Positions 16,902 through 51,606 of a DNA stretch of 64,000 bases are shown here, piece after piece. This stretch comes from Candidatus Omnitrophota bacterium (GTDB lineage Bacteria > Omnitrophota > Gorgyraeia > Zapsychrales > Zapsychraceae): NCBI GenBank assembly GCA_050250375.1, contig JBFWOS010000001.1, positions 91,346 to 155,345 of the forward strand. Reading direction: 5' to 3'. The stretch's first letter is position 1. Every line of letters begins with the position of its first letter. A program made the translations under genes and the position numbers. The notes below the pieces were generated by a model. It saw only the letters and a program-made list of their open reading frames with translations. It searched no databases and was not told the origin of the DNA.

Positions 16902-19382
16902 TTAGATTTTGTTTAATTGCGCTTCGCTTGTGACGACATTTTCAATGCCGGGGTCTTCATCAACTTCTGACATCTCCGGAGTACTAACTTCCATTGTCTG
17001 GATCTCACCCTTCAGGAATGCGTTGATGTCATCAATCTTGGTTTGCAAACTTTGAATTTCCTGCTTTACGGCCGGATTTTGCTGTTCTTCCGCTGATGAA
17101 TTCTGAAGAACGGACAACCGTTGATGAATCTCCAGCAATTGATCCTTGAGGACGACTAAGTTGTGGTGGGTTTTATCGATTACCTTAGATTTATCGTAGA
17201 GTTCGACCAATGTATTATCGAGTTGAGCCTGTATTTCGCCCATCATTTCTTCTTTTTGCTGGGCATCGTAATGTTTGTCTTTGAGTTTTAACTTATATAT
17301 TTCGAGCATCCCTTCAAGCTCTTGAATTTCCAAAACTTTTTTCTGAACCATGACACGCAAATTGTCACTCCTTAAGTCTCTTTTTTCCTTTTCTTGCTGT
17401 AACAGATCTTTGAGAAGCTCAATATGATTAATTTTTTCGCGGGAAAGACGGTCACGGGTCAGAATCTTGTCATCCAATCGGGCCAATTCCTTGGTTAAAT
17501 CATCGATCTGCTGTTTCTGGTAGTCAATATCTTGATTGGCATCCTGCAAATTCTGCTTATACAAGGTAATCATGTTGGTGACTTGTTTTAACTCCCGTTC
17601 TTTTTCCATGATAATTGAGTTTAACTCTTTTTCACGATCAGCACTGATTTTTGGCCCTTCATCCTTGCTGATATAAAAACGGTCATCATCCTTGCTTTTT
17701 TCTAACTTTCCTTTTACAGTACTGTCCAACTTGGCAATACGTTTATCTTTTTCCGATAAAACTTTATCAGAACTTGCCAACTTTTCCCGGTATTCTTCCA
17801 ACACCTTATTCAAACCGGTGATTTCTTTGTCTTTCTTGGCTAATTGCTGGGCATGAATTTCGTCTTTTTGAGCCAATTCCTTTTCCAGTTTCTGTAACTT
17901 TTCCTCTTTTTCTTTTATGATATTCTGAGTCAATTCGAATCGTGATTCAAAGTCCAGGACCTGCTGATTCAACTCTTTCAAAGATTTATCTTTTTCCTCA
18001 ATTTGTTTATCTTTCATGGCCAACTCTGCCTTTTGATCCTTAATAATCTCATCCTTCTTGGCCAATTCTTTATCCGTTTCTTTCTTCTTGGTTTCATTCT
18101 GCTTTAGCTGTGCGACTTGGTAACGTAATTTCCATGCCTCATCCTGATATTTTTGCGCCTTTGACAATTCTTCTTTCAGTTTGTCCACTTCGCTTTTGAA
18201 TTTGACCATATTTTCCGATTCTTTTTTAAGTTCTTTGATCTGCCGTTGATATTCGGCGATTTCTTGATCCCTGCCTTCGAGTTTCTTTTCGATGCCTTCC
18301 CCTTTGGCCATTAAACTCTGAATTTTCTCGTCCAATTCCTTAATTTGCTTTTCTTTATCTTTGAGCTTGGTTTCTGTCTGGGCCAATTTCGATTTTAAAT
18401 CCTTAAAGTTTTTCTCAAGCCGCTGGGTTAAAAGATTCTTTGATTCAAATTCCACCAGTTCACTGCGGAGCTTGTTAATCTCACCGTTCTTTTCGGTCTC
18501 TTTCGATTTGCTTTCGGTCAATTCTAACGAAAGATCGACAATTTCTTTGGACAAATGGTCAATTTTGTCATCACGATCCTCTAAAACAAGGTGCATATCA
18601 TCTAATTTAACTTTCGCTTCGTCCAATAAAGATGTTATGCCACCGACATCCGGCAGAGTGTTCAAATTGGTTTTGGCCTGTACATCCGCGGGAACACGGT
18701 TTCCTTCCTCATCATAAAAACGTTGTTTCCGGCTGAATTCCGAGGGAGACAATAAAGCAACTTCGCCCTGGATGTATCCGTTTTTCGCATTGACTTCACG
18801 CAAACGGTTATATTGCTTCTCAAAAAGCTCAATTTCATTTTGCAGCCTTTTATTCTCAAGCTTTAAAGAGGCGTGAATCACTTTTAGAGGATCTTCCCCC
18901 TTCGCATAACGTTCCTGGATTTCCGCCTCTTCCTGGTCCAAAACAGCTTTTTGTTCTGCGTCGATGGCAACCATTTCCTGTTCAAAAAAGGACCGTTCAA
19001 AGCCTTTTTCCATCAAATCTTCACCAAGCACATTCCGTTTATACCGGAAGTAGTCACTCTTGTCCTTCAATTTTTTGGTGTACTCCAGAAGATCTTCTAA
19101 AAGGATTAAATCCATTTTTTGTGAAGCAGGCACATTCTTTTCGCGGGATAAAGACTTTAGCGCATCATGCAATTTGGGATCGTTGGGGTTTAATAAGAAT
19201 GCCCGGCTAAAATCACTGATTGCATCACTGTATTTTCCATCCCGAATCATTTTTTGGCCATGCTCATAAAAAGAATCAGCAATTTTGTCAGGGGTTTCTT
19301 GAGCGTTGGATATCTGTGGTAAAAGTATAATTAAGCCGAGTAAAACGATTCGTAGGAGTAGGGCAGTATTTTTCATGATCAA
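16902..19382 (-). CDS. Large secreted protein with TPR-like repeats and a coiled coil (826 aa), hypothetical
   Basis: Signal peptide. TPR-like N-terminal region (DAISDFSRAFLLNPNDPKLHDAL). Then ~650 aa of K/E-rich coiled coil. Confidence 0.7.
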   Translation of the reverse strand: MIMKNTALLLRIVLLGLIILLPQISNAQETPDKIADSFYEHGQKMIRDGKYSDAISDFSRAFLLNPNDPKLHDALKSLSREKNVPASQKMDLILLEDLLEYTKKLKDKSDYFRYKRNVLGEDLMEKGFERSFFEQEMVAIDAEQKAVLDQEEAEIQERYAKGEDPLKVIHASLKLENKRLQNEIELFEKQYNRLREVNAKNGYIQGEVALLSPSEFSRKQRFYDEEGNRVPADVQAKTNLNTLPDVGGITSLLDEAKVKLDDMHLVLEDRDDKIDHLSKEIVDLSLELTESKSKETEKNGEINKLRSELVEFESKNLLTQRLEKNFKDLKSKLAQTETKLKDKEKQIKELDEKIQSLMAKGEGIEKKLEGRDQEIAEYQRQIKELKKESENMVKFKSEVDKLKEELSKAQKYQDEAWKLRYQVAQLKQNETKKKETDKELAKKDEIIKDQKAELAMKDKQIEEKDKSLKELNQQVLDFESRFELTQNIIKEKEEKLQKLEKELAQKDEIHAQQLAKKDKEITGLNKVLEEYREKLASSDKVLSEKDKRIAKLDSTVKGKLEKSKDDDRFYISKDEGPKISADREKELNSIIMEKERELKQVTNMITLYKQNLQDANQDIDYQKQQIDDLTKELARLDDKILTRDRLSREKINHIELLKDLLQQEKEKRDLRSDNLRVMVQKKVLEIQELEGMLEIYKLKLKDKHYDAQQKEEMMGEIQAQLDNTLVELYDKSKVIDKTHHNLVVLKDQLLEIHQRLSVLQNSSAEEQQNPAVKQEIQSLQTKIDDINAFLKGEIQTMEVSTPEMSEVDEDPGIENVVTSEAQLNKI

Positions 19383-22073: not shown

Positions 22074-23678
22074 CTAAAATCTGGCGGTAGCGCCGAAAGT
22101 AATAGATAGGGAATCCCAATTGACTTCATTTAGACGTTGTTTAGGAGTGCCCCCATTACTTAGAAAAAACTGGACAGTTCCTGGGTCCATTTCCCAGTCT
22201 TGGAGAACTAAACTTAATGATAACGACCACATTGAATTTATAAAATAGTCCCCGCCCCCCTCAAACACAATCCCACGTCCCTTATCCGAAATCATTTCAA
22301 AACTTCTCGGATTGACGAAATCATCCCTTAAATTCCAAGTGCCGTCGCCCACATAATCCGCGAAGTGATACTCAAAACGACCAAAACCACGCAACTTATT
22401 TTTTCGAGTTCTTCCAGACAACTCTAACCCGACCCACGGGCCATCCCATTGTGACCTGTAACGACTATCCAGTCCTGGAAAGGGTCCAAAATCCGGTATT
22501 GTCTGATTTCCATCCTGTATGACAAAGTCTTGTTTGTGCCTTGAATACCCGCCTAAAAATGTGACGGTCAATTTATCGACAAGAAAAATCGGGTCCGGGT
22601 TATCAACATAAAAACGCAAACCTCCGGCCAAAGAATAATCCCAGACATAACCATCATCGGACGAATTATTCGAACGGGAAAATTCGTCCGTACGATTGTC
22701 TCCATCATAATCAGAATCCTGATTATCTCCCTTAATAATAGAACCATACCCCGCTTTGGCATCAACCACAAAATGATTCAATAATATAAAATCAAATTTG
22801 GCTTTTGCTTCTACCATTTGTATATCCGACCAAGTTAATTCTGATATAATGTTTGGTGTGGCCGTTCCGGTCAGATCAGACGCAATATTAAAATCCAAAT
22901 CATCAACGCGGTAACCGATCGTCACCCGGGTATTTGTTTCTATCCCCGGTATACCCACCTTCTGGTCTTCCGATTTATAATTTAAATTGATTGATGGGAC
23001 CGCATTTTCCTTAAATGGGTACTGGTCATTTGTAACTTCAGCCATTTCGGCCCGTTCCAAATCTTCCAGGGTAACCGTTTTAATACTCGTATTATTGTCA
23101 GCGAACCGCTTAAAATTTCGATCAACATTGTCATAATTATAATAATTATGGGCATCCTTAATATGTTCAGCTGGTTCAGCCTGAAACACATTTTCTGATT
23201 TTTGGACAGATGATTTGTTTCCAAATATAGATGCTGCGGAATCTTTAACGGCCTCATCAGACAAAGCCACTTCAAATATTTCCCTTTTGGGAGTCTTAAC
23301 AACCGTTTGCCCGTCTCCATAAACGTATATGGGATCATCCAGTTCCACAAAACTGCTTGCAGTCAACTCATTATCGGTTTTGAACGCTGATTTCTTTTTA
23401 GGTGAAGATTTTGCAGTTTTCTCAATATATGGATTTGGTGCTTTTGGAGGAATATTGATTACTTTAGCTTGAGGAACGCGTTTTACAGGTTCAATGTCTT
23501 CATCCGTGGCTTCGGAGATAGAAACAAACCCCATTTTTTTTATACGTTCTTCCTGATCATTCTCAGCAGACCAAGATCCGGTAGCAGTAAAAAAAACAGC
23601 CAAAATGACTGTCATTTTGACAATAAAATACTTACACAGATTATTCATATTGAACATAGGGATATTGTGCCATTTCAA
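22074..23678 (-). CDS. Putative outer-membrane beta-barrel protein. The true start may be the internal MTVILAVFF.
   Basis: Signal peptide, alternating amphipathic beta-strand-like C-terminal half, C-terminal ...GATARF (terminal Phe typical of OMPs). Confidence 0.5.
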   Translation of the reverse strand: MKWHNIPMFNMNNLCKYFIVKMTVILAVFFTATGSWSAENDQEERIKKMGFVSISEATDEDIEPVKRVPQAKVINIPPKAPNPYIEKTAKSSPKKKSAFKTDNELTASSFVELDDPIYVYGDGQTVVKTPKREIFEVALSDEAVKDSAASIFGNKSSVQKSENVFQAEPAEHIKDAHNYYNYDNVDRNFKRFADNNTSIKTVTLEDLERAEMAEVTNDQYPFKENAVPSINLNYKSEDQKVGIPGIETNTRVTIGYRVDDLDFNIASDLTGTATPNIISELTWSDIQMVEAKAKFDFILLNHFVVDAKAGYGSIIKGDNQDSDYDGDNRTDEFSRSNNSSDDGYVWDYSLAGGLRFYVDNPDPIFLVDKLTVTFLGGYSRHKQDFVIQDGNQTIPDFGPFPGLDSRYRSQWDGPWVGLELSGRTRKNKLRGFGRFEYHFADYVGDGTWNLRDDFVNPRSFEMISDKGRGIVFEGGGDYFINSMWSLSLSLVLQDWEMDPGTVQFFLSNGGTPKQRLNEVNWDSLSITFGATARF

Positions 23679-37389: not shown

Positions 37390-39558
37390 ATGGAATCCAG
37401 AGTAATCCCCATATTCAGCAATAAAGGCGGTGTCGGAAAAACGTTTGTCGCGGTTAACTTAGCGGCTACCCTCGCCCTGTTGAAACGCAAAGTTTTATTG
37501 CTCAATCTCGATCTCCAGGCCGGACATGATATGGCCATTAATTTGAATGTGACCCCGGAACAATCATTGGCCCATCTCATTCCCGAGATGAAAAAAACTG
37601 AACAGTTCAGTCTTGAAACAATCAAAAAATTCCTGGTTCCGCATTCATCCGGATTTGATTTCTTAACGGCCATCACCGACCCACAGCAAATCAACTCAAT
37701 CCATCCGGCCGATGTTAAAATATTCCTGAATAAAGTCAACGTCCATTACGATTTTATCATTGTCGATTTAGGCGTTTCGTTCAATGAGTTGGTAATCACT
37801 GTCCTCGATAATTCTGATGCGATCCTGCTCTTGGCCACACCGGATGTTCTGGCCGTCTATCAATTGGCCTGGTGTATTAAAACCCTGCAGGAAATGCATT
37901 TTTCACTGAAAACAGTAAAGCTGGTCCTCAACCGGGCAGAAAGCCAGGGCGGCGTCGGCTGGAAAGAAGTCCGGGCGGCCCTGGATATTGACATTATCGG
38001 ACGGATCCCCTCCGATGGGAAGGCCGTTGGAAAGGCCCTTGAATTGGGAATCCCGGCCGTTGAAGAAAATCCTCGGGGAACAATCGCGGACGGCTTTAAA
38101 AAATTAGCGGCTGAACTTTTCAAAAAAGATATTTATTTACCGAAGTCCGAGGCCAAACAGCGAAACATGCAGTCGGAAAAAATTGAAACCCTGGCCGCCC
38201 AGGACGCGATTGTTGAATTTAAGGAAGGTGAAACCAAAGAACCGCCCAAACAAGATGACATTTTCAAAAACGCCGACTATACCAAAATTAAAATTAGTAT
38301 TCAGAAAAAACTGATTGACCGTCTTGAGATGAATTCCCTGACACCCGAACATTTCACCGACCCTAAAAAAGCCCAAGAACTAAGAGAATCCGCCAAACAA
38401 TTGATCAATACTATCCTGTTGGAAGAAGGCGGGAAATATGCCTCCTCCCTGGAAATTCGTACCCGGACCGTAAATGAAATCGTTAAAGAAACGTTTGGGC
38501 TGGGGATCCTCGAGGAAATCATGGAAGACGTCAACGTCGAAGAAGTCATGGTCAACGGCAGCCAGGAAATATATATCGAGAAAAAAGGTGAAATCACCTT
38601 AACCGAACATAAGTTCATTTCTGACCAGCATCTCAGGGCTATTATTAACAGGATCATCGCGCCTCTCGGCCGGCGTCTGGACGAATCTTCTCCGATGGTC
38701 GACGCCCGACTTCAGGACGGTTCCCGGTTCAATGCGATTATTCCACCGGTCTCCTTATCCGGCCCATGTGTAACCATCCGGAAATTTGCCGCTGAAAAAC
38801 TGACGGTCGATCATATTGTCTATAAATTTAATACCCTGTCCGAACAGATGAACAATTTTCTGCATGCGTGTGTCCTGGGCCGGATGAATATCATTATCGC
38901 CGGAGGTACCGGTTCCGGAAAAACAACTCTTTTAAACGTCCTGTCTGAATTTATCCCGGACGATGAACGCATCATCACCATAGAAGACGCGGCCGAGTTA
39001 AGTCTGCAAAAAGAACATTGGTGCCGGCTGGAAGCGCGCCCGGCCAACGTCGAAGGCGTCGGTGAAATCTCCGTTCGCGATCTGTTCGTTAATACCTTGC
39101 GTATGCGGCCTGACCGTATTGTCATCGGTGAATGCCGGGGGCCGGAAGTATTGGATATGCTCCAGGCCATGAACACCGGCCATGACGGCTCTATGACCAG
39201 CCTTCACGCTAACTCGGCCCGGGATGTCCTCATCCGCATGAGTTCCATGATCCTTTTAAGCGGGATCGAACTGCCCATGCGGGCCATTAATGAAATGATT
39301 TCTTCGGCGATCAATATCATCGTCCACATGGCGCGTTATACGGATGGTTCGCGCAAAGTCACAGGGATCTCGGAAATCGTCGGCCTTGATAATGACAGTG
39401 AACTGGATCTTAAAGAAATCTTTTTTTTCAATCAAACCGGCCGCGATGAGTCGGGCGTCATCCACGGCCAGTTTCAGAATTCGAATTATATCCCCAAATG
39501 TGCCGATGAACTGATTAAAAAAGGGGTCAAAATCGATTTGTCCATGTTTAAATCTTAG
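37390..39558 (+). CDS. Fusion ATPase: N-terminal ParA/MinD-like (TadZ/CpaE-type) domain plus C-terminal CpaF/TadA VirB11-family secretion ATPase. Paralog 1.
   Basis: Deviant Walker A SNKGGVGKT at residues 9-17. C-terminal T2SS_E domain with GGTGSGKTTLLN, ITIEDAAEL and GHDGSMTSLHANS. Confidence 0.85.
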   Translation: MESRVIPIFSNKGGVGKTFVAVNLAATLALLKRKVLLLNLDLQAGHDMAINLNVTPEQSLAHLIPEMKKTEQFSLETIKKFLVPHSSGFDFLTAITDPQQINSIHPADVKIFLNKVNVHYDFIIVDLGVSFNELVITVLDNSDAILLLATPDVLAVYQLAWCIKTLQEMHFSLKTVKLVLNRAESQGGVGWKEVRAALDIDIIGRIPSDGKAVGKALELGIPAVEENPRGTIADGFKKLAAELFKKDIYLPKSEAKQRNMQSEKIETLAAQDAIVEFKEGETKEPPKQDDIFKNADYTKIKISIQKKLIDRLEMNSLTPEHFTDPKKAQELRESAKQLINTILLEEGGKYASSLEIRTRTVNEIVKETFGLGILEEIMEDVNVEEVMVNGSQEIYIEKKGEITLTEHKFISDQHLRAIINRIIAPLGRRLDESSPMVDARLQDGSRFNAIIPPVSLSGPCVTIRKFAAEKLTVDHIVYKFNTLSEQMNNFLHACVLGRMNIIIAGGTGSGKTTLLNVLSEFIPDDERIITIEDAAELSLQKEHWCRLEARPANVEGVGEISVRDLFVNTLRMRPDRIVIGECRGPEVLDMLQAMNTGHDGSMTSLHANSARDVLIRMSSMILLSGIELPMRAINEMISSAINIIVHMARYTDGSRKVTGISEIVGLDNDSELDLKEIFFFNQTGRDESGVIHGQFQNSNYIPKCADELIKKGVKIDLSMFKS

Positions 39559-39576: not shown

Positions 39577-41739
39577 ATGAAAACAAAAGTCATTACATTC
39601 TGGAGCAACAAAGGCGGCGTTGGAAAAACATTTCTGGCGGTGAATACAGCCACCACATTGACCTTGTTAAAACACCGGGTCCTGCTGATGGAATTAAACT
39701 TTCAGTCCATCCATGCGATCGACAAAATGTTAAATCTCGTCAGCCGTTTCGGGCTCGCCAACCTGATGTCCCAGATCGAAACCCTGGATAATCCCGAAAT
39801 CATCAAAAAAGCCGTCTCCCCTCATTCCTGCGGGATGGATTATCTGCCGGTGGTCTCAAGTTCCACCCAGAATGCTGAATTTACAACCGCAAAAATAAAG
39901 GCTTTTTTTGAAAAGGCGTCAACTTTGTACGATTTTATTATTCTGGATGCCCGCCGCGCGCTCAGTGAAGGTCTCGTTTCCGTGATGCAAAATTCAAATC
40001 TGGTCGTGCTGATTGATACGCCTGAAAATTTGACCGTCAACAAATTTAAATGGTGCCTGTCCATGCTCAACAGCATCCATATTCCCAAACCGATGATCAA
40101 GCTGGTCATCAACCGGTCCGCGTCCCGGGGGACTGTTGATCCGAAATTATTAAAAGAACAACTGGGCCTGGACATCCTGGGAGAAATCCCTTCGGATGGA
40201 AAAACGGTAGGTTTAGCCCTCAACAGCTGCATCCCCTGCGTCCTCGATAGTCCGAAAAGTCCGGTCACCCAGGCCATCGTGAATTTTGCGAGAAAATTTG
40301 AGAATGAGGCACTATATCCTGAAGTCACTATTCAGGAAAACGCGCTGATTTCCGGTAAGATTCAGGACCAGGACGGCTCGCTGAAAAAATTCGGGGTAAC
40401 CCGCTCCAAAGATGACAATGCTTTTATATTCAACCAGGATGATGAGGAAATCCTTCTGAAAAAGAAGACTCATGAAAAACTGGTTAAAGAAATGAATATT
40501 GTTAACCTGGGGCCAGAGTCCTTTACGGATGAAAAACTAATGAAGGAACTTCGTGAAAAAGCCACGGGTATCACCGATAAACTGCTGACCCAGGAATATT
40601 CAAAGTTGACCAAGGATGACACCATCCGCGCCCGTTTGACGAACGAAATTGTCAGCGAGGCCTTCGGTCTTGGGCCGCTCGAAGAATTTCTGGAGGACAC
40701 GGACGTCTCGGACATCATGGTCAACAGCCAAAGACAAACCTTTATTGAAAAGAAAGGTAAAATCATTAAAACCGGCGCAAAATTTTCGTCTGAAATGCAG
40801 ATGCGAAGCATCATCGACCGGATCATTGCTCCGTTAGGCCGCCGGATTGACGAATCAACTCCCATGGTCGACGCGCGCTTGCAGGACGGTTCGCGTTTTA
40901 ACGCGCTTATCCCCCCGCTCTCTTTAACGGGGCCTATGATCACGATCCGTAAATTCGGGCGTGAACGCCCAAAAGTCGATGACCTCCTGAACAAATACAA
41001 TAGCTTAAATGACAATATGCGTGTATTTCTTGAAGCCGCAGTCCGCGGAAGAAAAAATATTATCGTTTCCGGAGGAACAGGTTCAGGAAAAACAACCCTT
41101 CTCAACATTATCTCAACATTCATTCCGGATAAAGAACGGATCGTCACGATTGAAGACGCGGCTGAGTTAAGAATCAACAAATCCCACTGGATCCGGCTGG
41201 AATCGCGTCCGCCCAACATTGAAGGTAAAGGGCAGATCCACATCCGGACCCTGTTCATGAACAGCCTGCACATGCGCCCGGACCGTATTATCGTCGGGGA
41301 ATGCCGGGGGTCTGAGGTCATCGACATGCTCCAGGCCATGAATACGGGACATGACGGGTCTATGACGACCCTGCACGCCAACTCCACCAAAGACGTGCTG
41401 GTCCGCATGAGTTCCATGATTCTGCTGGCCGGTGTTGAATTACCCATTCGCGCGATTTACGAAATGATTTCCACCGCCCTGGACCTCATTGTCCATATCA
41501 ACCGGTTCAGTGACGGGACCCGTAAGATTGTCGAAATCACGGAAGTCGCCGGCCTGACGAAAGACCACTCCCTCCAATTAGGCGATATTTTCAAATTTGA
41601 ACAAAAGGGAATGGATGAAGGCGGCAAGATTCTCGGAGAATATGTGGCGACCGGTTATGTGCCTAAATGTTATGAGGAATTCAAAACGATCGGGATTGAT
41701 CTCGATAAAAACATATTCACTCCCCCCGCAAAAAAATAA
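39577..41739 (+). CDS. Fusion ATPase: ParA/MinD-like domain plus CpaF/TadA ATPase. Paralog 2, about 55% identical to paralog 1.
   Basis: SNKGGVGKTFLAVN, then GGTGSGKTTLLN, VTIEDAAEL and GHDGSMTTLHANS. Same architecture and length as the upstream gene. Confidence 0.85.
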   Translation: MKTKVITFWSNKGGVGKTFLAVNTATTLTLLKHRVLLMELNFQSIHAIDKMLNLVSRFGLANLMSQIETLDNPEIIKKAVSPHSCGMDYLPVVSSSTQNAEFTTAKIKAFFEKASTLYDFIILDARRALSEGLVSVMQNSNLVVLIDTPENLTVNKFKWCLSMLNSIHIPKPMIKLVINRSASRGTVDPKLLKEQLGLDILGEIPSDGKTVGLALNSCIPCVLDSPKSPVTQAIVNFARKFENEALYPEVTIQENALISGKIQDQDGSLKKFGVTRSKDDNAFIFNQDDEEILLKKKTHEKLVKEMNIVNLGPESFTDEKLMKELREKATGITDKLLTQEYSKLTKDDTIRARLTNEIVSEAFGLGPLEEFLEDTDVSDIMVNSQRQTFIEKKGKIIKTGAKFSSEMQMRSIIDRIIAPLGRRIDESTPMVDARLQDGSRFNALIPPLSLTGPMITIRKFGRERPKVDDLLNKYNSLNDNMRVFLEAAVRGRKNIIVSGGTGSGKTTLLNIISTFIPDKERIVTIEDAAELRINKSHWIRLESRPPNIEGKGQIHIRTLFMNSLHMRPDRIIVGECRGSEVIDMLQAMNTGHDGSMTTLHANSTKDVLVRMSSMILLAGVELPIRAIYEMISTALDLIVHINRFSDGTRKIVEITEVAGLTKDHSLQLGDIFKFEQKGMDEGGKILGEYVATGYVPKCYEEFKTIGIDLDKNIFTPPAKK

Positions 41740-42465: not shown

Positions 42466-43242
42466 TTATTGATCAATCGTTTTGAGCGTTTGGATGAGAA
42501 ATCCGTAATCGGGAGTTTTAATCACCGAATCGTAACCACCAGCCCGCTTGACTCCCAGGACATCAATCGCTGAAACATGTCCGGTGATAATAATGATGTT
42601 GGCCCTGTTTTCATCCAACTGGCTGATCAAGCGGCAAAGTTCAATCCCCTGAATATCGGGAAGGATTGTGTCCAGGATGATAATATCCGGATTCTCCGTC
42701 CTGGCCTTTTCCAGGCCTTCCTGACCGCTGGAGGCTACACTGAATTTCGTAAACCCCTCGCTTTTGAGGGTGTCTTTCATCAAAAACTGATCGCCTTCAT
42801 TATCATCCACGATCAGAATTTTCACTTTATCTTTGTCCGTAATTTTATATTGGCCGATTTTGTCCATCTCGACCGATTCAATCGCCCCTAAAATCTCGGA
42901 AAAATCGCAGGGTTTCTGTAAAAAACCATCGGCCATATCAAGAACCTTGTTGTGATCCTTTAGATAATCCCTGTCATAGCCGGTGATGACAATAATCCTC
43001 GGTTGAAACGAACCGCTGTATTTATTTCTGATATTCTGGATGAGTTCAAACCCATCCAGTTTCGGTATGTGCAGATCGGTTAAGATCACATCCGGCTGAT
43101 TTTCCTGGATGATTTCCCAGGCCTGCTCACCATCCAGGGCGCTTAAGACTTCATAATCATGCGAGGCGATTTTCTGAACCATCATCTCAAGGACGATATC
43201 TTCATCATCAATCACCAAAACTTTTGCCAACTTTTTATTCAT
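42466..43242 (-). CDS. Response regulator with two tandem receiver domains and no output domain
   Basis: Two receiver units (VLVIDDEDI...ILTDLHIPKLDG and ILIVDDNEGD...IILDTILPDIQG). Confidence 0.85.
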   Translation of the reverse strand: MNKKLAKVLVIDDEDIVLEMMVQKIASHDYEVLSALDGEQAWEIIQENQPDVILTDLHIPKLDGFELIQNIRNKYSGSFQPRIIVITGYDRDYLKDHNKVLDMADGFLQKPCDFSEILGAIESVEMDKIGQYKITDKDKVKILIVDDNEGDQFLMKDTLKSEGFTKFSVASSGQEGLEKARTENPDIIILDTILPDIQGIELCRLISQLDENRANIIIITGHVSAIDVLGVKRAGGYDSVIKTPDYGFLIQTLKTIDQ

Positions 43243-43369: not shown

Positions 43370-44371
43370 TCACCGTTCGCGTTTGACCATCTTCCAGCAA
43401 CGGTGGATCGTTTTATTGCGGTAATCTTCGGGAATTGTTTTCGGGGTCAGCTCATGGATTGTCTGTGCCCCTAAATCATCCAGGCGCGGTTCAAACCGCT
43501 GATGGTTGGTTGAAAAAAACACGATAGAACCCGGGATCATCACCTTCATGACTTTGCGCAAGAGCAAAGGATGTTCGCGGTTAATATCAAATGAATCTTC
43601 TTGTTCATGGTCCTGGGAAAACGAAGGCGGATCAATGAAGGCCAGGCTGAATCTCCGCCCTTCCTTATATATACGGTCCAGATAATCCAGCGCATCGGAT
43701 TGCACCATCTCATGGTTCTTTCCCATGCATTGATTCAATTCCATATTATCCTTCGCCCATTTTAAATAGGTCGAATTACGGTCGACCGTCACAGAACTCT
43801 GCACGCCTCCGGCCGCGGCCGCACAGGTAAACGCGCCGGTATACGCGTAAAGGTTGAGAAAATCTTTCCCTTTGGCCATACCACGGATGAGCATACGGGT
43901 CTCCCGGTGATCAGAAAATAACCCTGTATCCAGATAATCCTCCAGATTAACCCAGAACTTCAGATCCCGTTCGTTGACCTCAAACCGCACCCCTTTAGAG
44001 TCCAGTTTTTTATACCGGGGACCGTCTTTAATGTTGGTCGTCCTTTGTCTGATATGGACGTTTTCTTTCGGGATGGATAACGCCTGCCCGACGGCTTCAG
44101 CCATTTTCGGCAGCCAGTCGGTTCCTGTCTGAAGGCGGATGTATTCACCGACCACGGCATGCCCCCCGTACCAGTCCACCACCGCCCGGACTTCCGGAAT
44201 GTCCCAGTCGTACAAGCGAAAACAGTCAATATTCTGTTTCCGGAACCGTTTCGAAAAATGCCGGTATTGTTTGCGGACCCGGTTGGATAACAGCTCCGCA
44301 TGCTGCCGGGTTTTTTCCGGAGTGATAATATTTTTTAGTCTTGAAGGGGTTGAATGACCTGAACCGGCCAT
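43370..44371 (-). CDS. Class I SAM-dependent rRNA methyltransferase, RlmK-like (equivalent to the C-terminal half of RlmKL)
   Basis: FLNLYAYTGAFTCAAAAGG SAM-binding and FIDPPSFS motifs. Resembles the RlmK/RlmI m7G/m5C MTase family. Confidence 0.65.
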   Translation of the reverse strand: MAGSGHSTPSRLKNIITPEKTRQHAELLSNRVRKQYRHFSKRFRKQNIDCFRLYDWDIPEVRAVVDWYGGHAVVGEYIRLQTGTDWLPKMAEAVGQALSIPKENVHIRQRTTNIKDGPRYKKLDSKGVRFEVNERDLKFWVNLEDYLDTGLFSDHRETRMLIRGMAKGKDFLNLYAYTGAFTCAAAAGGVQSSVTVDRNSTYLKWAKDNMELNQCMGKNHEMVQSDALDYLDRIYKEGRRFSLAFIDPPSFSQDHEQEDSFDINREHPLLLRKVMKVMIPGSIVFFSTNHQRFEPRLDDLGAQTIHELTPKTIPEDYRNKTIHRCWKMVKRER

Positions 44372-44945: not shown

Positions 44946-45563
44946 ATGTCGATTGAAATCATCCCCATAACACAAGTTTCGACCATTGAAGCCTTTGCTA
45001 ACACCCTCAAAAGTGATTATCAGGTCAACCGCTGGTTCTTATACATCATGCAACAGCCCTCTGCTTCTGAAGAGCTGTGTAAATCCTCGGAGGTCGCGCA
45101 CAGTTTTTCCCGCCTAAAAACCTGGGTGATTGTTCAACGCTTCCTTTTTCTTACGGTCATCCCATGGGCCGTGACAGCGTTATTTTTTCCGATCAATTGG
45201 ATATCGGTCATATCCCTGGCAGTCCTCGTGACCGGCATGTTATCCGTCGCCGTCGTAAAAATTAATTTAGTCAAAAAGATTGCCCTCCATATGCTTCAGC
45301 GTGATTTTGGCGGAAAATCCCTCGAAAAACTAACCTTATACGAAGTGGGTGAATTCTACGGCAGAAAATATAACACAACAGCGTTAGTCGATAAACTGAA
45401 TAAGGCGGCCGTCATCTACAGAGTCGCGGTTGCAGCCTCTCTTTTTATCGGCGTATTTATCTTTTCATTCAAATTTATAGAATTAGTAGCTTTCACGCTG
45501 ATGGGCTTGTTCATAAGCCGCTTGACTGTGAATACCGATTTCTTTTATAAAAGACTATCTTAA
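44946..45563 (+). CDS. Hypothetical integral membrane protein (205 aa)
   Basis: Four hydrophobic helices. Only sizeable plus-strand gene in this region. Confidence 0.5.
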   Translation: MSIEIIPITQVSTIEAFANTLKSDYQVNRWFLYIMQQPSASEELCKSSEVAHSFSRLKTWVIVQRFLFLTVIPWAVTALFFPINWISVISLAVLVTGMLSVAVVKINLVKKIALHMLQRDFGGKSLEKLTLYEVGEFYGRKYNTTALVDKLNKAAVIYRVAVAASLFIGVFIFSFKFIELVAFTLMGLFISRLTVNTDFFYKRLS

Positions 45564-45574
45564 TATTCCAGGAT

Positions 45575-47470
45575 TTAATTAAATTTTACCAGAGAAAATA
45601 TAATGCTTAACAGCAATATTCTCCCAAAGCTTGACGTGGTCAGAAAAAAAGTCACCCTGATAAACTGATAAACAATCAGCATGACTGGGCCGTTCATCTT
45701 TTTATGTTTAAACACTAAATTTTGTGCGTCATAATACATCCAGTTGAGATTGGTGATCCGGTTTTCATTCAAAGTTTGAAAATACTGCTGCGACCCGGGT
45801 AACGGTGACAACAAGCCGAAGATCGTAAAATATGGATTTAATTTCAAACAGAATTTCCACATCTTAAAAATATTTTTATAGGAATCCGTTTCAAAACCAA
45901 AAATAAAATGGGCCTTGATCCTGATTCCAGCCTCTTTAATTTTTCTTGCGTATTCGAGATACTTCCCCCCCATCGTGAACTTCCCACCCATCGCCTTGTC
46001 GGACTCTCCCTGGGTAATTTCAAAACCAATTAAAAACTGTTTGCATCCGCTGTCCCTGGCCAGTTCCAGGGTCTGTGTATTTTTCGCGATATCAATCGTG
46101 CATTGCGTGACCCAATTCATTTTTAATGGTTTGATGGCCTCAAAAAGTTCACGGGCATACGCCGGATCATTGTAAATGTTATTATCGATAAACTCGACAG
46201 TACGGTATTTCTTCCTGACAATTTTCAACAATTCAACCAGCTGAAAAACCGGTTTTCGCCGGAGCCTTCCCCCGCTGATTCCCGGAATAGTACAAAAATG
46301 GCACTTAAATTTACAGCCTCGGGTCGTTTCTAGAAAATTTTTAACAATATGCGGTGGTGATTTTAACAATTCCTGATGAACGTCGTCATAAAAGTCATCA
46401 ATCGACCCGCCGGAATAAACTTTTTTCATCTCCCCTTTTTCAAAATCGTTCACAATTTCTTTCCAGACCCCCTCACATTCACCAATAACAACACTGTCAC
46501 AAAACTCCAATGCTTCTTTTGGCAGAAACGTGACATGGGGGCCGCCCATGACTACTTTTGATCCGCATTTTCTAAAATCTTTAGCAATTTTATAGGCCTC
46601 TAAACAATTCGACGTAAAACAGGTAATCGCGACAAGCTTGCCCGGCTTATAAAAACTCCTGTTCCAGACTTTCGTATTGAATTCCCTGAAATGATAATCT
46701 TTGGGCGTTAAGGCTTTTAAAACAACAAATAAAGGCGGATAACAATTCACAACCCGCATGGCCAGCCAGCTAAGCAGCCCCCGATTGATCGGGTTAATCA
46801 TATAAAGTTCTTTTTCATATTCAAATGATTTCCTGATAGACGGATGTTGATTGATCATAGCATCGACAATAAAGATAAATGACCACAGATTTAAAAAAAC
46901 TTCCACGAACCCCAGCACATGGATTAATTTAAATTTCTGAACGTCAAAAAGCCAAATCGACACAACTACACCCAATTGGACTAACTGTAGACAAGTCAAA
47001 ATAAGGATCGACTTCCAATCACCGGAGAATAGTTGTCCGGTGGATTTGATCATTTTTAAATATTTTTTCCGCACGATCAGGCCGGCAAAAATATATAGAA
47101 CAAAGACATTTAGAAAAAAATTCACAATGGTTAAGGGCAGAACGACACCCTTAAAATACAACAAAAAATTAAAAATATGTACGCCGATATAAATCAGCAG
47201 ATACTGCCACCAATACCGGTAAGCGTTCTTTTTAAACTGGGATATGGTTACGATAATTTCCTGGCCGCTCACCAACTCAACAAGGGACCCACAAATACCC
47301 GCCATAAAAAAGACAACAAACAAAGCTTTAAGAAAGACCGAAAATGTCCCCAAAAAAGGCAAAAAAACATTGTCATTAACAATATCCAGGAGGTACATAA
47401 GGATGACGAACTGAAAGTTCGCACAGAGGATCGAAAAGGACCGGGAAATGCCTGTAAATGAGTTATTCAT
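45575..47470 (-). CDS. B12-binding radical SAM enzyme with an N-terminal polytopic membrane domain of about 215 aa
   Basis: About 6 TM segments, then a B12-binding-like domain (KLVAITCFTSNCLEAYKIAKDFRKCGSKVVMGGPHVT) and the radical SAM cluster motif TTRGCKFKCHFC (Cx3Cx2C). Hydrophobic C-terminal tail. Confidence 0.8.
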   Translation of the reverse strand: MNNSFTGISRSFSILCANFQFVILMYLLDIVNDNVFLPFLGTFSVFLKALFVVFFMAGICGSLVELVSGQEIIVTISQFKKNAYRYWWQYLLIYIGVHIFNFLLYFKGVVLPLTIVNFFLNVFVLYIFAGLIVRKKYLKMIKSTGQLFSGDWKSILILTCLQLVQLGVVVSIWLFDVQKFKLIHVLGFVEVFLNLWSFIFIVDAMINQHPSIRKSFEYEKELYMINPINRGLLSWLAMRVVNCYPPLFVVLKALTPKDYHFREFNTKVWNRSFYKPGKLVAITCFTSNCLEAYKIAKDFRKCGSKVVMGGPHVTFLPKEALEFCDSVVIGECEGVWKEIVNDFEKGEMKKVYSGGSIDDFYDDVHQELLKSPPHIVKNFLETTRGCKFKCHFCTIPGISGGRLRRKPVFQLVELLKIVRKKYRTVEFIDNNIYNDPAYARELFEAIKPLKMNWVTQCTIDIAKNTQTLELARDSGCKQFLIGFEITQGESDKAMGGKFTMGGKYLEYARKIKEAGIRIKAHFIFGFETDSYKNIFKMWKFCLKLNPYFTIFGLLSPLPGSQQYFQTLNENRITNLNWMYYDAQNLVFKHKKMNGPVMLIVYQFIRVTFFLTTSSFGRILLLSIIFSLVKFN

Positions 47471-47596: not shown

Positions 47597-48448
47597 TTAT
47601 GATTTTTCGTATGTTTGGAAAACCGCCCGGTTTTTGCCTTCTTTCTTGGCGGCATACATCAGCCGGTCGGCCTGGATGATCATTTCGCTGACGGAGTCAA
47701 GGGCCGTCACAAATGTGGCCACCCCGAGGCTGAATGTGACCTTCCACCCGTTGTGCTGCATGGCCCGGATCAGGCCGTCCTTTAAACGCCGGATCACGAT
47801 CTGCGATTCTTCACTGTTGGTTTCGGGAAGCAAAATAACAAACTCATCTCCCCCCAGGCGGCCGGCCTTGTCCGTCACGCGGATGGATTTCTGGATCGTG
47901 AGCGCCACTTCCTGAAGCACCTGGTTTCCGGTTTCATGCCCATACGTATCGTTGATCTCCTTGAACTGGTCACAGTCAATATAAACCAGGGTCATCGGGC
48001 GCGGATACCGGCGGGTCCGGCGGGTTTCTTCCGTCACAATTTCCATAAAGGCCTGGTTATTGGAAAGTCCGGTGAGAAAATCTTTTCGGGCCAGCATCCT
48101 TTCCCGTTCCAAAGACATCTTCAACTTTGACAAAATAACCGAAACGATCACAAAGAACCCCAGACGGATGCCTGCGTTCCAGAACAGGATAAACAAACTG
48201 ATATACTCATGGTTTGCCAGCAGATCGGCGGCAATCCATACAAAAGCGCTGACGAATGAAACCAGAATCGCCTGGCCGGGCCCTGAGGTCCAGGCCATTA
48301 CCACAATCGGCAGGAGATAAAATATGGAAAATCCAAGGACATAACCCGTGATCGTATCCAGCAACCCGATAATGACAATAAGCATGTAACTGAACAGCAT
48401 GCTGGTTGTTTTATTCTCCTCCAGAAAATTAATAATTTTTTTGTGCAC
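47597..48448 (-). CDS. Membrane-anchored diguanylate cyclase (GGDEF)
   Basis: Five N-terminal TM helices, then a GGDEF domain with RLGGDEF. Confidence 0.85.
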   Translation of the reverse strand: MHKKIINFLEENKTTSMLFSYMLIVIIGLLDTITGYVLGFSIFYLLPIVVMAWTSGPGQAILVSFVSAFVWIAADLLANHEYISLFILFWNAGIRLGFFVIVSVILSKLKMSLERERMLARKDFLTGLSNNQAFMEIVTEETRRTRRYPRPMTLVYIDCDQFKEINDTYGHETGNQVLQEVALTIQKSIRVTDKAGRLGGDEFVILLPETNSEESQIVIRRLKDGLIRAMQHNGWKVTFSLGVATFVTALDSVSEMIIQADRLMYAAKKEGKNRAVFQTYEKS

Positions 48449-48564: not shown

Positions 48565-51500
48565 TTAAAATTTCTTAAAAATGGAATCGAGGACTCCTTC
48601 AATAAGGATCTGCTCCGGGGCTTTTTCCGGTTGTGCCGGCGGAGCCGTTTCTCCCGACGGCGCAGTCTGTTTGATGCCTTGGGCCGGTTGCGTCCCGCCT
48701 GATGCCGGGGTTTCCGGGCCGGAAGCCGGCGCCTTTTCTCCCGAATCAAATGTCTTATTGAACAGTTTCTGCAATTCCTCACGGCCCTTATTTTTAAGCG
48801 CGTTTGCCGCCAGATCTTTCAAGTCAGGAAAAAATTGGACGTTGGGACCTTTCCCGGTAATCAGCAGCGGGAACCGGATCCTCTTTTGTTCATCGTAGAG
48901 GTATTCCAGCTGCGGCGCCGCCTGAGCCATATACTGCGACATATCCTGCGGAATAATAAATATCCCGTTAAACGTATAACGCTGGTCGAATCCGACCTGG
49001 CCAGTTCCAGTAAAGAGAAAATTGTCCGCGGTCAGATTAAATGATTTGATCTTGACCAGGCTGTTTTCTATGCCGATTGTCATAGTCGCGTCGGTAATGA
49101 CCGTATCTTTCTGGTTAAGCCGTGTTTTTAAATCCGGCGGAAGAATGGACTCGATCGTCTGCCGGAAATTGGAGATAATCTTGATATTATCAAGAACCAA
49201 CGCCAGGATGTTGATATCGGTGAGCCGCCCTTCCTTAAACGCCAGGTTCCCCTGCCCCGTCAGGGCCTCCATCATCACGTTCGGTTCAAAGCCGTGCCCC
49301 TGGATCGCAAGCTCTCCGTTAATAACACCCTGAACCTTAACCGCGAAATCCTTTTGGTTGATGATTTCAGCCAGACTTAAATCGATCAATTTCGTGTCGG
49401 CCTGATAACGCTGTTCCTTCACAAAATCAGTCAAGGACCCTTTGAGCGATAAACTGCCCTTCCCGAGTTTAAGGACGATTTCCTCCATCGTCACATTATT
49501 CCCCGCGAACTGAATCTTGGCCTGGACCGGATCGACCGGCGCGTTTAATTCCTTGAGCACGACCCTGCCGTTTTTAAATTCCATGGTCCCGTTCACCGGT
49601 CCGAGGCCTGACGGCCCGGCCGTCAATGAACTTAAGGCGACGGAGGCCTGCCCTTTTAACTCGACCGGTAACGGCGCGTCTTTAAGCGCCGCGATGCTTT
49701 GTTTCAGCCGGTCTAACGATAACGCCGATAAATCCGTCTGGAAATTCAGCCCGTCGATCTTGATCTCCTGGGTCTGCTGGTTCAACGCGGCCTTTGTCTC
49801 AAACGAAAAATTCGGCCGGTCACTCAGGTAAGCCAGTTCACCCTGCACACTGAACGGCCCGCCGTTCAGCGAAAAATCTTTGATGTTAAGTTTGGCCTGC
49901 GACACATCAAGACCGACACCCGGAGCGATTTCCTTAAATGACACCTGCCCCCCGGATAAAGACACATCCATGGACAGCGATTCAAGTCCGGCAGGTCCGG
50001 CCGCGGCATCCTTGATCGATACCCGGCATTTTCCGGCCAGCTTGTCCGGCAGCGGGACATCTTTGAGCGCGGGCGCGCTTTCCTTGATTTGCGCAAGCGA
50101 AAACCCGGCCAGGTCGGTTTCAAACGTCGTATCCCTCAGGCGCACTGATTGTTTTTCCAGATTAAATACGCCGTAGCCGTCAAGCGAGACATTCGGCACC
50201 GGATTCATAACACCGGCTTTTAAAGAAAAAGAAAACGGTCCGTTCAGCGAAAAATCTTTTAACGCCAGGTTTATGCCCTGCACAGACAACGCCGCCCCGC
50301 TCTTGTCCTTAAGGCTCACCGCTCCATTGGTCAAACCGAAGTTCATATTAAGAGAAGTCAACCCGGCAGGCCCCGCAGAAAATTCATTGAGGTCCAGACG
50401 GATATTTCCCGTCAGCTTATCCGGAAGCGGCTGGTCCTTGAGCATCGGAACGGCAGACTTCAGCTGGTCCAGCGAATAAGAAGACAGGTCGGTGGTCACG
50501 GACACTCCGCTTAAGCGGACGCTCTGTGACATCATGTCAAACAGGGCCTTGCCCTGGACTGTGATATTCGGCTGATCGTTCAGATACGCGGCAGAGACAT
50601 TCCATTGAAACGGATTGTTTAACGAAAATCCGGTCACACCGACGTTGATCTTTGAGGCCGCAAACGATACGCCGGGCGCGGCTTCTTTGATCGCAATCTT
50701 TCCGTTTTCAAATTTGACATCGGCGTTGACGGACGTCAGTCCCTGCGGTCCGGCCGCAAGTTCTTTGACCGTTAGTGTAAACTGACCGCCCAGCACTTCC
50801 GGAAAAGGGACATTTTGGGGGATGACCGGAAGCTGACGGATCGCGTCAAAAGAGATCTTGTCCAAATCTGTTTTAAGGCTGAATTGTGAAAGGGTAACCG
50901 CCGACGTTTTCGGGTCAAGCCGGACCTTGCCTTCCACCCGGATATTTTCCTGCTGGCCGAAAACCGCCGCGCCCAAAGAGACCTTAAACGGCGCGCTTAA
51001 TGAAAATCCGTTAACCATCAGGGATGCCTGCGTCACGCTCAGCTTCATTTCAGGATCGAAGGTGCGGTCAATGACGGTAATTTCGCCCCCGGTCATTTCA
51101 ACGGTATCCACAAACACAGCCGGCAAATCCGCCGGCTTTGCCGCAGGGGATGACGGGCCTGATCCCCCGGTCCCGGGCTGCGAAGGATTTTCCGCCGGAG
51201 GAGTTCCGATCGTCTGGGCATTGATCTGTCCGTCTTTATCCCGAATAATGGTTACCCGCGGTGATTTGATCTGCACCCGGGTGACCGCGATCTCCTTCTT
51301 CATAATATACGACAACACGTTCACACTGACAAAGACTTCATCGACACTGAAAAAATCGCCTGTTCCGAAAGCGGAACTTTCACTGATCGTCACTCCGTTA
51401 ATCGCGAAGCGTACGCCCTGGCTGATGGAAGGTTTTAAATCAATCGTCTTAAAATCAACCGTGCGGTTAAGCGCCGAATTCGCGGCCGCGACAATCTGGG

Positions 51501-51606
51501 TTTTATAACGGTTAACGTCCAGTGTTTTCAGGAAGATAAAAACACCCGCCAACAGCAGGACAAACAGGATTAAAACTACAAGGATAATTCGTTTAAGGAT
51601 TTTCAT
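48565..51606 (-). CDS. AsmA-family protein (TamB/AsmA-like envelope lipid-transfer protein), 1013 aa
   Basis: N-terminal TM anchor MKILKRIILVVLILFVLLLAGVFIF. A long beta-rich body with about 4 internal repeats of ~105 aa. Low-complexity P/A/S/G tail. Confidence 0.72.
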   Translation of the reverse strand: MKILKRIILVVLILFVLLLAGVFIFLKTLDVNRYKTQIVAAANSALNRTVDFKTIDLKPSISQGVRFAINGVTISESSAFGTGDFFSVDEVFVSVNVLSYIMKKEIAVTRVQIKSPRVTIIRDKDGQINAQTIGTPPAENPSQPGTGGSGPSSPAAKPADLPAVFVDTVEMTGGEITVIDRTFDPEMKLSVTQASLMVNGFSLSAPFKVSLGAAVFGQQENIRVEGKVRLDPKTSAVTLSQFSLKTDLDKISFDAIRQLPVIPQNVPFPEVLGGQFTLTVKELAAGPQGLTSVNADVKFENGKIAIKEAAPGVSFAASKINVGVTGFSLNNPFQWNVSAAYLNDQPNITVQGKALFDMMSQSVRLSGVSVTTDLSSYSLDQLKSAVPMLKDQPLPDKLTGNIRLDLNEFSAGPAGLTSLNMNFGLTNGAVSLKDKSGAALSVQGINLALKDFSLNGPFSFSLKAGVMNPVPNVSLDGYGVFNLEKQSVRLRDTTFETDLAGFSLAQIKESAPALKDVPLPDKLAGKCRVSIKDAAAGPAGLESLSMDVSLSGGQVSFKEIAPGVGLDVSQAKLNIKDFSLNGGPFSVQGELAYLSDRPNFSFETKAALNQQTQEIKIDGLNFQTDLSALSLDRLKQSIAALKDAPLPVELKGQASVALSSLTAGPSGLGPVNGTMEFKNGRVVLKELNAPVDPVQAKIQFAGNNVTMEEIVLKLGKGSLSLKGSLTDFVKEQRYQADTKLIDLSLAEIINQKDFAVKVQGVINGELAIQGHGFEPNVMMEALTGQGNLAFKEGRLTDINILALVLDNIKIISNFRQTIESILPPDLKTRLNQKDTVITDATMTIGIENSLVKIKSFNLTADNFLFTGTGQVGFDQRYTFNGIFIIPQDMSQYMAQAAPQLEYLYDEQKRIRFPLLITGKGPNVQFFPDLKDLAANALKNKGREELQKLFNKTFDSGEKAPASGPETPASGGTQPAQGIKQTAPSGETAPPAQPEKAPEQILIEGVLDSIFKKF
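49450..51040 (-). repeat. Intragenic tandem repeats of about 315 nt (~105 aa), about four copies, inside the AsmA-family gene. Coordinates approximate.
   Basis: Protein-level repeats FSLN(G)PF...DL(A/S)(G/S)FSL(A/D)Q(I/L)K(E/S)(S)AP(A/M)LKD(V/Q)PLPDKL(A/T)G...AAGPAGL(T/E)SL recur about every 105 residues. Confidence 0.6.

Follow-up and report, generated by a model that had tools for sequence, protein, structure and literature searches.

The 64,000-nucleotide stretch of DNA analysed here (the window; positions 91,346 to 155,345 of contig JBFWOS010000001.1, assembly GCA_050250375.1, from a Candidatus Omnitrophota bacterium) carries on its minus strand, at 45575..47470, a gene for a radical S-adenosylmethionine (SAM) enzyme that is predicted to be an integral membrane protein. 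The gene was one uninterrupted open reading frame (ORF) of 631 residues with an ATG start and a stop codon at 45575-45577, and its product exactly matched GenBank MGE0269354.1, named 'radical SAM protein [Candidatus Omnitrophota bacterium]' and located on a 1.2-Mb contig of a metagenome-assembled genome (MAG). From N- to C-terminus, the protein comprised a membrane domain (residues 1-215; 46826..47470), a Rossmann-type B12-binding-like domain (residues 216-360; 46391..46825), a radical SAM core in the form of a partial triosephosphate isomerase (TIM) barrel (residues 361-590; 45701..46390), and a hydrophobic helix pair (residues 591-631; 45578..45700), all encoded on the minus strand. Facing this gene on the plus strand, at 44946..45563, lay a gene for a 205-residue protein with four hydrophobic segments, hereafter the partner; only 11 nt (45564..45574) separated the two convergent stop codons. 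The partner gene and its linkage to the enzyme gene were absent from the earlier note on this DNA.

Both catalytic domains were delimited using Pfam, a structural model, Foldseek comparison, and conservation within the family. The Radical_SAM profile (PF04055) matched residues 381-534 (E 9e-12; 45.9 bits against a cut-off of 29.5), and the B12-binding profile (PF02310) matched residues 279-338 (E 6e-8; 32.9 bits against 32.1), the latter match being restricted to profile positions 54-119, which correspond to the C-terminal half of the B12-binding domain. A full-length AlphaFold2 model built on 59 family sequences (predicted local distance difference test [pLDDT] score 88.2; predicted template modelling [pTM] score 0.86) displayed the alternating strand-helix pattern of a Rossmann domain at residues 221-354 and a radical SAM barrel at residues 383-553, which Foldseek aligned with solved radical SAM enzymes. 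The CX3CX2C motif, CKFKCHFC at residues 386-393 in the translation (46292..46315, minus strand), lay inside this partial barrel, placing the protein among the radical SAM enzymes, and the position of the Rossmann domain N-terminal to the barrel is the class B arrangement. In this respect the earlier description of a B12-like domain followed by a Cx3Cx2C motif was accurate. The three cysteines of the motif (C386, C390, and C393), the predicted site of the SAM-cleaving [4Fe-4S] cluster, were 100% conserved among 179 family members.

Conservation extended well beyond this motif. Past residue 215, 84 positions were at least 90% conserved, including an invariant GGxH motif (G309, G310, and H312) in the Rossmann domain and near-invariant D429, N431, W453, D460, C476, E484, G496-K497, G525, and W577 in the radical SAM core. 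Judging from this pattern and the invariant CX3CX2C motif, the enzyme looks catalytically active. Additional conserved cysteines were C324 (98%), C476 (99%), and C284 (89%); an auxiliary iron-sulfur cluster was considered and is unlikely, C324 and C476 alone being too few cysteines to bind one. No canonical DxHxxG cobalamin motif was visible in the enzyme sequence, and class B radical SAM enzymes mostly lack this motif. 'B12-binding' names the fold alone, and the enzyme may or may not use cobalamin, because the closest solved fold, that of AprD4, works without it.

The N-terminal membrane domain was supported by hydropathy, structural models, conservation, and charge pattern. Kyte-Doolittle windows of at least 1.6 covered residues 12-206 as five or six blocks, together with residues 606-628 near the C-terminus. 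Two AlphaFold2 models, the full-length one and one of residues 1-218 alone (pLDDT 92.1; pTM 0.89), contained the same six long helices (residues 20-40, 43-68, 76-106, 113-138, 152-174, and 182-207), and these predicted transmembrane helices were preceded by a short amphipathic helix (residues 7-17); pLDDT in this part of the models was about 90. Across the 179 family members, positions rich in lysine and arginine clustered at 9-10, 77-88, 134-150, and 213-220, while the loops 107-112 and 175-181 were charge-poor. This distribution fits, by the positive-inside rule, a topology with the N-terminus inside, six spans, and a cytoplasmic catalytic domain; hydropathy, the models, the charge distribution, and a natural fusion protein described below together form the basis of this topology. 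An iron-sulfur/SAM enzyme has to sit in the cytoplasm. At the other end of the protein, helices 594-612 and 614-630, joined by a conserved LTTSxxG turn, constitute the C-terminal pair delimited from translation, hydropathy, and the model, and in that model the pair is a second membrane anchor. Thus, the approximately 215 N-terminal residues of polytopic membrane helices and the hydrophobic tail that had been read from the sequence at the outset were both recovered.

The membrane domain was less conserved overall than the catalytic part (mean top-residue frequency of 0.37 versus about 0.65) and carried distinct family motifs, namely SGIYGxLxExxSGEE (at about 57-71, with the SGEE turn at 68-71), N82, W87, and K136-Y137. 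Its conserved positions were D/E/N29 (87%), K/R52 (83%), E/D65 (91%), N82 (91%), W87 (81%), and K136 and Y137 (92% each), in addition to G58 and G61, and the polar ones fell inside the helices or at their cytoplasmic ends. Judging from this conserved polar pattern, the domain probably has a functional role and does not simply anchor the protein.

We found no relatives of the membrane domain outside the family when residues 1-215 were searched exhaustively with phmmer against 1.8 billion representative proteins: each of the 31 matches either had the full architecture of the family or was a collinear fragment from the N-terminal end of such a protein. The domain had no match in NCBIfam, and Foldseek comparison of its model with the PDB returned nothing significant (best E 0.4). 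GPCR-like bundles and CysZ, the latter with the highest TM-score (0.47; E 2.5), were discarded as noise-level matches. With hhalign, the partner showed no homology to the membrane domain, and in neither of the two was one half homologous to the other.

The partner itself was without a match in Pfam (for which 35 members were also scanned), NCBIfam, PADLOC, or the PDB sequences. A word-indexed homologue search yielded four relatives, and the partner family was then built from the fetched loci. Partner orthologues with 26-61% identity occupied the same position in all eight of the loci examined first, and profiles built from these first orthologues were used to count the linkage in 85 loci, which contained 75 unique full-length enzyme genes. 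A convergent partner lay within 300 nt of 56 of the 75 genes; a further six were upstream members of tandem arrays, in which two or three enzyme genes share one terminal partner gene, and two were partner-enzyme fusions, both in one locus (L064) of a single MAG. Three genes were on contigs too short to judge, so that 64 of the 72 assessable genes were linked to a partner by convergence, array, or fusion. For the remaining eight, no partner was found downstream, although one of them (L052) had a divergent partner 14 nt upstream. At another locus (L061), partner and enzyme were encoded on one strand. When 963 neighbouring ORFs were clustered, the partner was the only general neighbour of the family (64 of 85 loci).

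The two fusion proteins (847 and 865 residues, one of them GenBank MCD4780287.1) consist of the partner (residues about 4-201), a linker of approximately 12 residues, the membrane domain, the Rossmann domain, and the radical SAM domain. Taken together with the charge patterns, such a short linker places the partner C-terminus and the enzyme N-terminus in the cytoplasm, and hence all soluble parts of the two proteins are predicted to lie on the cytoplasmic side. The best-conserved partner residues were D24 and W30 (98% each), F31, T130, L131, E136, S146, and L147; they sit outside the hydrophobic segments, in the N-terminal segment or a central loop rich in lysine and arginine, both predicted to be cytoplasmic. 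The tandem arrays make it plausible that the partner serves as a subunit shared by two or three enzymes.

The layout of the pair was conserved as well. Among 61 unique convergent pairs, the median gap was 0 nt, and 30 pairs overlapped by 4-53 nt, nine of them by 4 nt. Terminator-like hairpins were more common in the window than in shuffled sequence (11 versus 4.5), and none was found between the enzyme and partner genes. There is no room for a terminator between the genes, and the transcripts must therefore overlap in antisense.

The same observations fit the main rival explanation, in which the partner is itself the substrate: the enzyme would modify a conserved residue in the D24...W30-F31 segment or in the T130-L131...E136...S146-L147 loop, for instance by C-methylation or crosslinking, and the gene pair would thus yield a small membrane protein carrying a modification. 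In favour of this, the two genes are strictly paired and paralogues mostly own a partner copy; the best-conserved partner residues are few, cytoplasmic, and nearly invariant; and the arrays with several enzymes per partner resemble the multi-enzyme tailoring of a single precursor. On the other hand, an enzyme that carries its substrate as an N-terminal fusion, in front of six transmembrane helices, would be unusual, fusions more often joining subunits; no function could be recognised for the partner itself; and for eight full-length genes no partner was found downstream, although L052 has its divergent upstream copy. On balance, we regard this rival as unlikely, but as the strongest of the alternatives, and the distribution of the partner across the family bears on it further.

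This distribution became apparent from a short sister clade, represented by 17 genes in the fetched loci. Its proteins (417-463 residues) matched the family profile from about position 220 onward and lacked the six-helix domain; a few carried one N-terminal hydrophobic segment, and the hydrophobic C-terminal tail was retained. For 14 of the 17 genes, the partner was not found in the fetched locus. At the same time, of the 84 positions with 90% or higher conservation in the long clade, the sister clade kept 49, including C324, W336, D342, E344, W453, D460, C476, E484, and W577, and differed at E381, S489, K497, D529, W538, and N576. The catalytic unit with a tail anchor alone is probably the older of the two forms, with the membrane domain and the partner gained or lost together. 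Because the two come and go together, the partner is expected to work with the membrane domain, and this is the strongest argument for that pairing. It also counts against the partner as substrate, since the partner was lost with the membrane domain and not with the catalytic domain, most of whose residues the sister clade keeps.

Downstream of some short-clade genes, on the same strand, we observed a membrane protein of 164-168 residues (L074, 2767-3273; L083, 7334-7828; L084, 2261-2755), which may be a different membrane companion. A 'split' membrane domain was considered for these loci and rejected, because the protein did not match the profile of the membrane domain or that of the partner.

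For the family as a whole, a scan of one genome per GTDB species found at least 370 relatives. In a separate homologue search, 678 of the candidates scored were significant homologues. The best 120 of these 678 were mostly 626-687 residues long (a few 528-613), with 80-100% query coverage and 40-86% identity, and the named ones among them were Omnitrophota or Omnitrophica. An artefact of gene calling can be ruled out for the enzyme gene, because more than 120 homologues of 626-687 residues align over 89-100% of its length. By submitters' labels, the 78 distinct loci kept comprised 64 from Omnitrophota (including Candidatus Gygaella and Candidatus Zapsychrus), 13 from 'uncultured Planctomycetales', and one from Elusimicrobia. 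Several copies per genome were found; the complete 3.36-Mb genome OY759724.1, for example, gave five loci. The family is thus almost confined to Candidatus Omnitrophota and is multi-copy. In the literature, we found no paper on this family, nor one in which a B12-type radical SAM enzyme carries a polytopic membrane domain, within a coverage that left out most subscription journals.

Many copies per genome in varied contexts might also be expected if the pair were a mobile element or served in defence against phages, or if the enzyme were an inactive relic, and one PADLOC match (PDC-M51A, E 4.7e-6) points in the direction of defence. This match was weak and confined to the generic Rossmann region, the partner had no PADLOC match, and the enzyme could not be assigned as a defence protein on these grounds. 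Furthermore, a search of 2.9 million viral contigs returned no relative of the family, no integrase or transposase was a conserved neighbour among the clustered ORFs, and all catalytic motifs were invariant, which does not suit a relic. We consider a mobile, defensive, or inactive nature of the pair very improbable.

Comparison with known enzymes confirmed the kind of catalytic module and separated the family from the characterised members compared. No curated family claimed the enzyme: NCBIfam gave 23 weak matches, all far under their cut-offs, and Pfam recognised nothing in the enzyme beyond the two generic domains. The scores were 74 bits against a cut-off of 251 for TIGR04013 (MJ_1487 type), 74.2 against 577.6 for HpnJ (TIGR03471; E 9.7e-21), 64.1 against 360 for TIGR04072 (rSAM_ladder_B12, lipid biosynthesis; E 9e-18), 52.7 against 481.35 for BchE (TIGR02026), 33.6 against 650 for HpnR (TIGR04367), 31 against 360 for MgmA (TIGR04014), and 26.6 against 251 for MiaB/RimO (TIGR00089). 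The closest solved structures were AprD4, MgmA, TsrM, CysS, MiaB, and OxsB, which aligned with the catalytic part alone at 12-16% identity; sequence matches in the PDB fell at query positions 377-593, and no alignment was long enough to include the membrane domain. A close, characterised soluble enzyme, which would have reduced the N-terminal region to a mere hydrophobic leader, was therefore not found. Of the enzymes to which the earlier note had proposed comparing the catalytic domain, BchE appeared only as a sub-threshold model, like HpnJ and HpnR, and the nearest structure was AprD4.

AprD4, a radical SAM 1,2-diol dehydratase (PDB 6fd2), ranked first both among the structural matches (Foldseek E 5.6e-14; 453 aligned columns; TM-score of 0.65 on the target) and among the PDB sequence matches (E 1.6e-9). 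Like the present enzyme, it carries a Rossmann B12-like domain on the N-terminal side of its radical SAM barrel. Unlike it, AprD4 is a 457-residue chain with no partner protein, and the two share 14% identity. The sequence match spanned query residues 386-593 and the Foldseek alignment was no longer than the catalytic part, giving no sign of a counterpart to the membrane domain or the C-terminal tail. The NCBIfam model for AprD4 did not match the window protein and gave the fusion protein 15.5 bits against a cut-off of 500. AprD4 acts on an aminoglycoside and needs no cobalamin.

The class B methylases TsrM (6wte), CysS (9n1b), MgmA (9ccb), TokK (7kdx), and OxsB (5ul3) share the two-domain catalytic architecture and the CX3CX2C site (Foldseek E 2e-12 to 1e-8; weak sequence matches; 12-16% identity), and their matches were too short to reach the N-terminal 215 residues. 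Their substrates are tryptophan, polyketide or carbapenem intermediates, or a protein glutamine. That related B12-type radical SAM enzymes modify proteins, with MgmA as the third-best structural match and both TIGR04014 and ApyD, an enzyme for ribosomally synthesised and post-translationally modified peptides, among the weak matches, again speaks for the partner as substrate. MiaB and RimO resemble the enzyme in their flavodoxin-like N-terminal domain and radical SAM barrel (Foldseek E 9e-9 to 5e-6). They act on transfer RNA or a ribosomal protein and need an auxiliary [4Fe-4S] cluster bound by three cysteines of the N-terminal domain, a set of residues that the present family lacks. If the substrate is a lipid, HpnJ, HpnR, TIGR04072, and, by function, GrsA/GrsB offer the closest functional analogy, that is, radical chemistry on unactivated carbons of membrane lipids; the HpnJ, HpnR, and TIGR04072 matches started at residue 293 or 380 within the catalytic part alone, and none of these models reached the N-terminal 215 residues. 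Overall, the catalytic module is of a well-known enzyme kind, and what is new is the membrane domain, the double anchoring, and the partner.

The explanation that we favour, with a probability of roughly 0.5, is that the enzyme is the catalytic subunit of a two-protein inner-membrane complex whose radical chemistry would take place at the cytoplasmic face, on a substrate that resides in the membrane. The parts of this explanation that we infer are complex formation, the substrate, the type of reaction, and cobalamin use. The partner would pack onto the membrane domain of the enzyme to give an assembly of about ten helices, which would hold a hydrophobic membrane-resident substrate at the cytoplasmic leaflet and deliver it to the active site, a lipid chain or lipid-linked molecule being the most plausible candidate. 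There, the reduced cluster would cleave SAM, and the resulting 5'-deoxyadenosyl radical would remove a hydrogen from an unactivated carbon. Methyl transfer would follow if the Rossmann domain binds cobalamin; if it does not, a rearrangement, cyclisation, or C-C coupling might ensue. The C-terminal helix pair ties the barrel back to the membrane, and paralogues would differ in the position that they modify or in substrate specificity.

Several observations weigh against this explanation. The sub-threshold family matches were equally close to enzymes that do not act on lipids (TIGR04013, BchE, PhpK, ApyD, and MgmA), and the closest solved fold, AprD4, is cobalamin-free, so that methylation is not assured. 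The window copy is atypical, having lost several polar residues typical of the family in its membrane domain, where V52 stands in place of K/R, C16 in place of N/H, and C60 and F192 each in place of Y. An adjacent or fused partner suits a protein substrate as well as a subunit, and a conserved convergent, overlapping layout is unusual for subunits that need joint production. Finally, no lipid, hopanoid, or quinone biosynthesis gene was a conserved neighbour among the 963 clustered ORFs, and no hopanoid or ladderane genes were found near the enzyme gene. The proposal in the earlier note of catalysis on a membrane-resident substrate thus stands as far as the integral membrane nature of the enzyme is concerned, this being a conserved trait and not a hydrophobic leader, while the choice of a lipid, hopanoid, quinone, or lipid-linked molecule goes beyond what the gene neighbourhood supports.

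Radical chemistry on lipids is nevertheless plausible in Omnitrophota. Among Omnitrophota MAGs, Mss was reported in 15 of 267 and ElbD in 93 of 267 (PMC11868695), and Hbs homologues were reported in Omnitrophota MAGs (bioRxiv 10.1101/2023.10.20.563219); these surveys are background and not evidence for the present gene. In addition, the hopanoid enzyme HpnJ and the lipid family TIGR04072 rank among the best of the matches below cut-off. As a doubtful extension of the membrane-complex explanation, the enzyme, its membrane domain, and the partner could represent a new kind of intramembrane radical SAM machine that tailors the hydrocarbon chains of Omnitrophota lipids in place, through methyl branching, ring formation, or the cross-linking of ether or membrane-spanning lipids, with one modification for each paralogous pair.

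Around the gene pair, the window contained on the upstream side of the enzyme gene a membrane-anchored GGDEF diguanylate cyclase (47597-48448, minus strand), directly adjacent, and an AsmA/DUF748/YhdP-like protein of 1013 residues (48565-51606, minus strand). The AsmA/YhdP-like family has been linked to lipid transport between membranes. Other nearby genes encode a SAM-dependent methyltransferase (43370-44371), a two-receiver response regulator (42466-43242), and, in tandem on the plus strand, two fusion ATPases of the ParA/TadZ-like and T2SSE (CpaF-like) type with 722 and 720 residues (37390-39558 and 39577-41739, respectively). This neighbourhood, from the GGDEF gene to the ATPases, was common only to close relatives, such as locus L001. 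The two-receiver response regulator was present in 15 loci and the ParA-T2SSE ATPases in 11, which in both cases looks like synteny of a local kind.

The ATPases raise a further alternative, in which the membrane parts only localise the enzyme, the substrate is soluble or related to secretion, such as a peptide or protein of nearby Tad/Flp-type pilus machinery, and the partner is a tether or regulator. The ATPase pair lies about 4 kb away in the window and recurs near family members in the 11 loci mentioned, and in three loci (L071, L079, and L082) a sister-clade gene stands directly beside such an ATPase, convergent to it, followed by a secretin (with TonB_C), RcpC/CpaB, and a peptidyl-prolyl isomerase, which together indicate a Tad/Flp-type pilus cluster. 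Moreover, the sister clade manages with a C-terminal anchor alone. However, the Tad association holds for a minority of loci and may reflect only synteny, through the shared ancestry of neighbouring genes, whereas the partner was the sole conserved neighbour. That charged and polar residues are conserved within the membrane domain speaks against a passive anchor, and the clustered ORFs contained no conserved candidate for a precursor peptide nearby. We therefore rate localisation alone as distinctly unlikely, below the partner as substrate.

The segment 44403-44705 (minus strand) showed 73% identity by tblastn over 98 residues to residues 137-234 of a 236-residue protein that is intact in L001 (12638-13348); with an ORF of 69 residues left, it is probably the remnant of a truncated gene. 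The enzyme gene region (44-48 kb) had a low G+C content of 0.42. Low values (0.385-0.453) also extended across about 24 kb (14001-38000), compared with about 0.47-0.55 in most other parts of the window. Elsewhere, a 534-residue protein (22074-23678, minus strand) matched the Pom family (Protochlamydia outer membrane protein; E 9.5e-53), a link to the Planctomycetes-Verrucomicrobia-Chlamydiae (PVC) superphylum that fits an Omnitrophota origin. Two long ORFs on the minus strand (2245-4812, 855 residues; 16902-19382, 826 residues) had no Pfam match at E ≤1e-5, and a promoter scan gave matches no more frequent than in shuffled sequence.

The polytopic membrane domain sets the enzyme apart, as the solved relatives found match its catalytic part alone. 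To this known module, the family adds a six-helix domain without a known fold relative, a second anchor at the C-terminus, a dedicated partner that is sometimes fused, and several copies per genome, all in an uncultivated phylum of very small bacteria. The gene pair, together with the natural fusion MCD4780287.1, is a defined target for expression and structural work. If the partner is modified, the two proteins would be a new enzyme-substrate pair inside the membrane. If the enzyme acts on lipids, as in the membrane-complex explanation, it would show how radical chemistry reaches substrates within the bilayer and would provide candidate genes for unexplained lipid structures; and if the tailoring of lipid chains within the membrane holds true, the family would be a genetic source for the orphan branched or bridged lipid biomarkers of anoxic environments.

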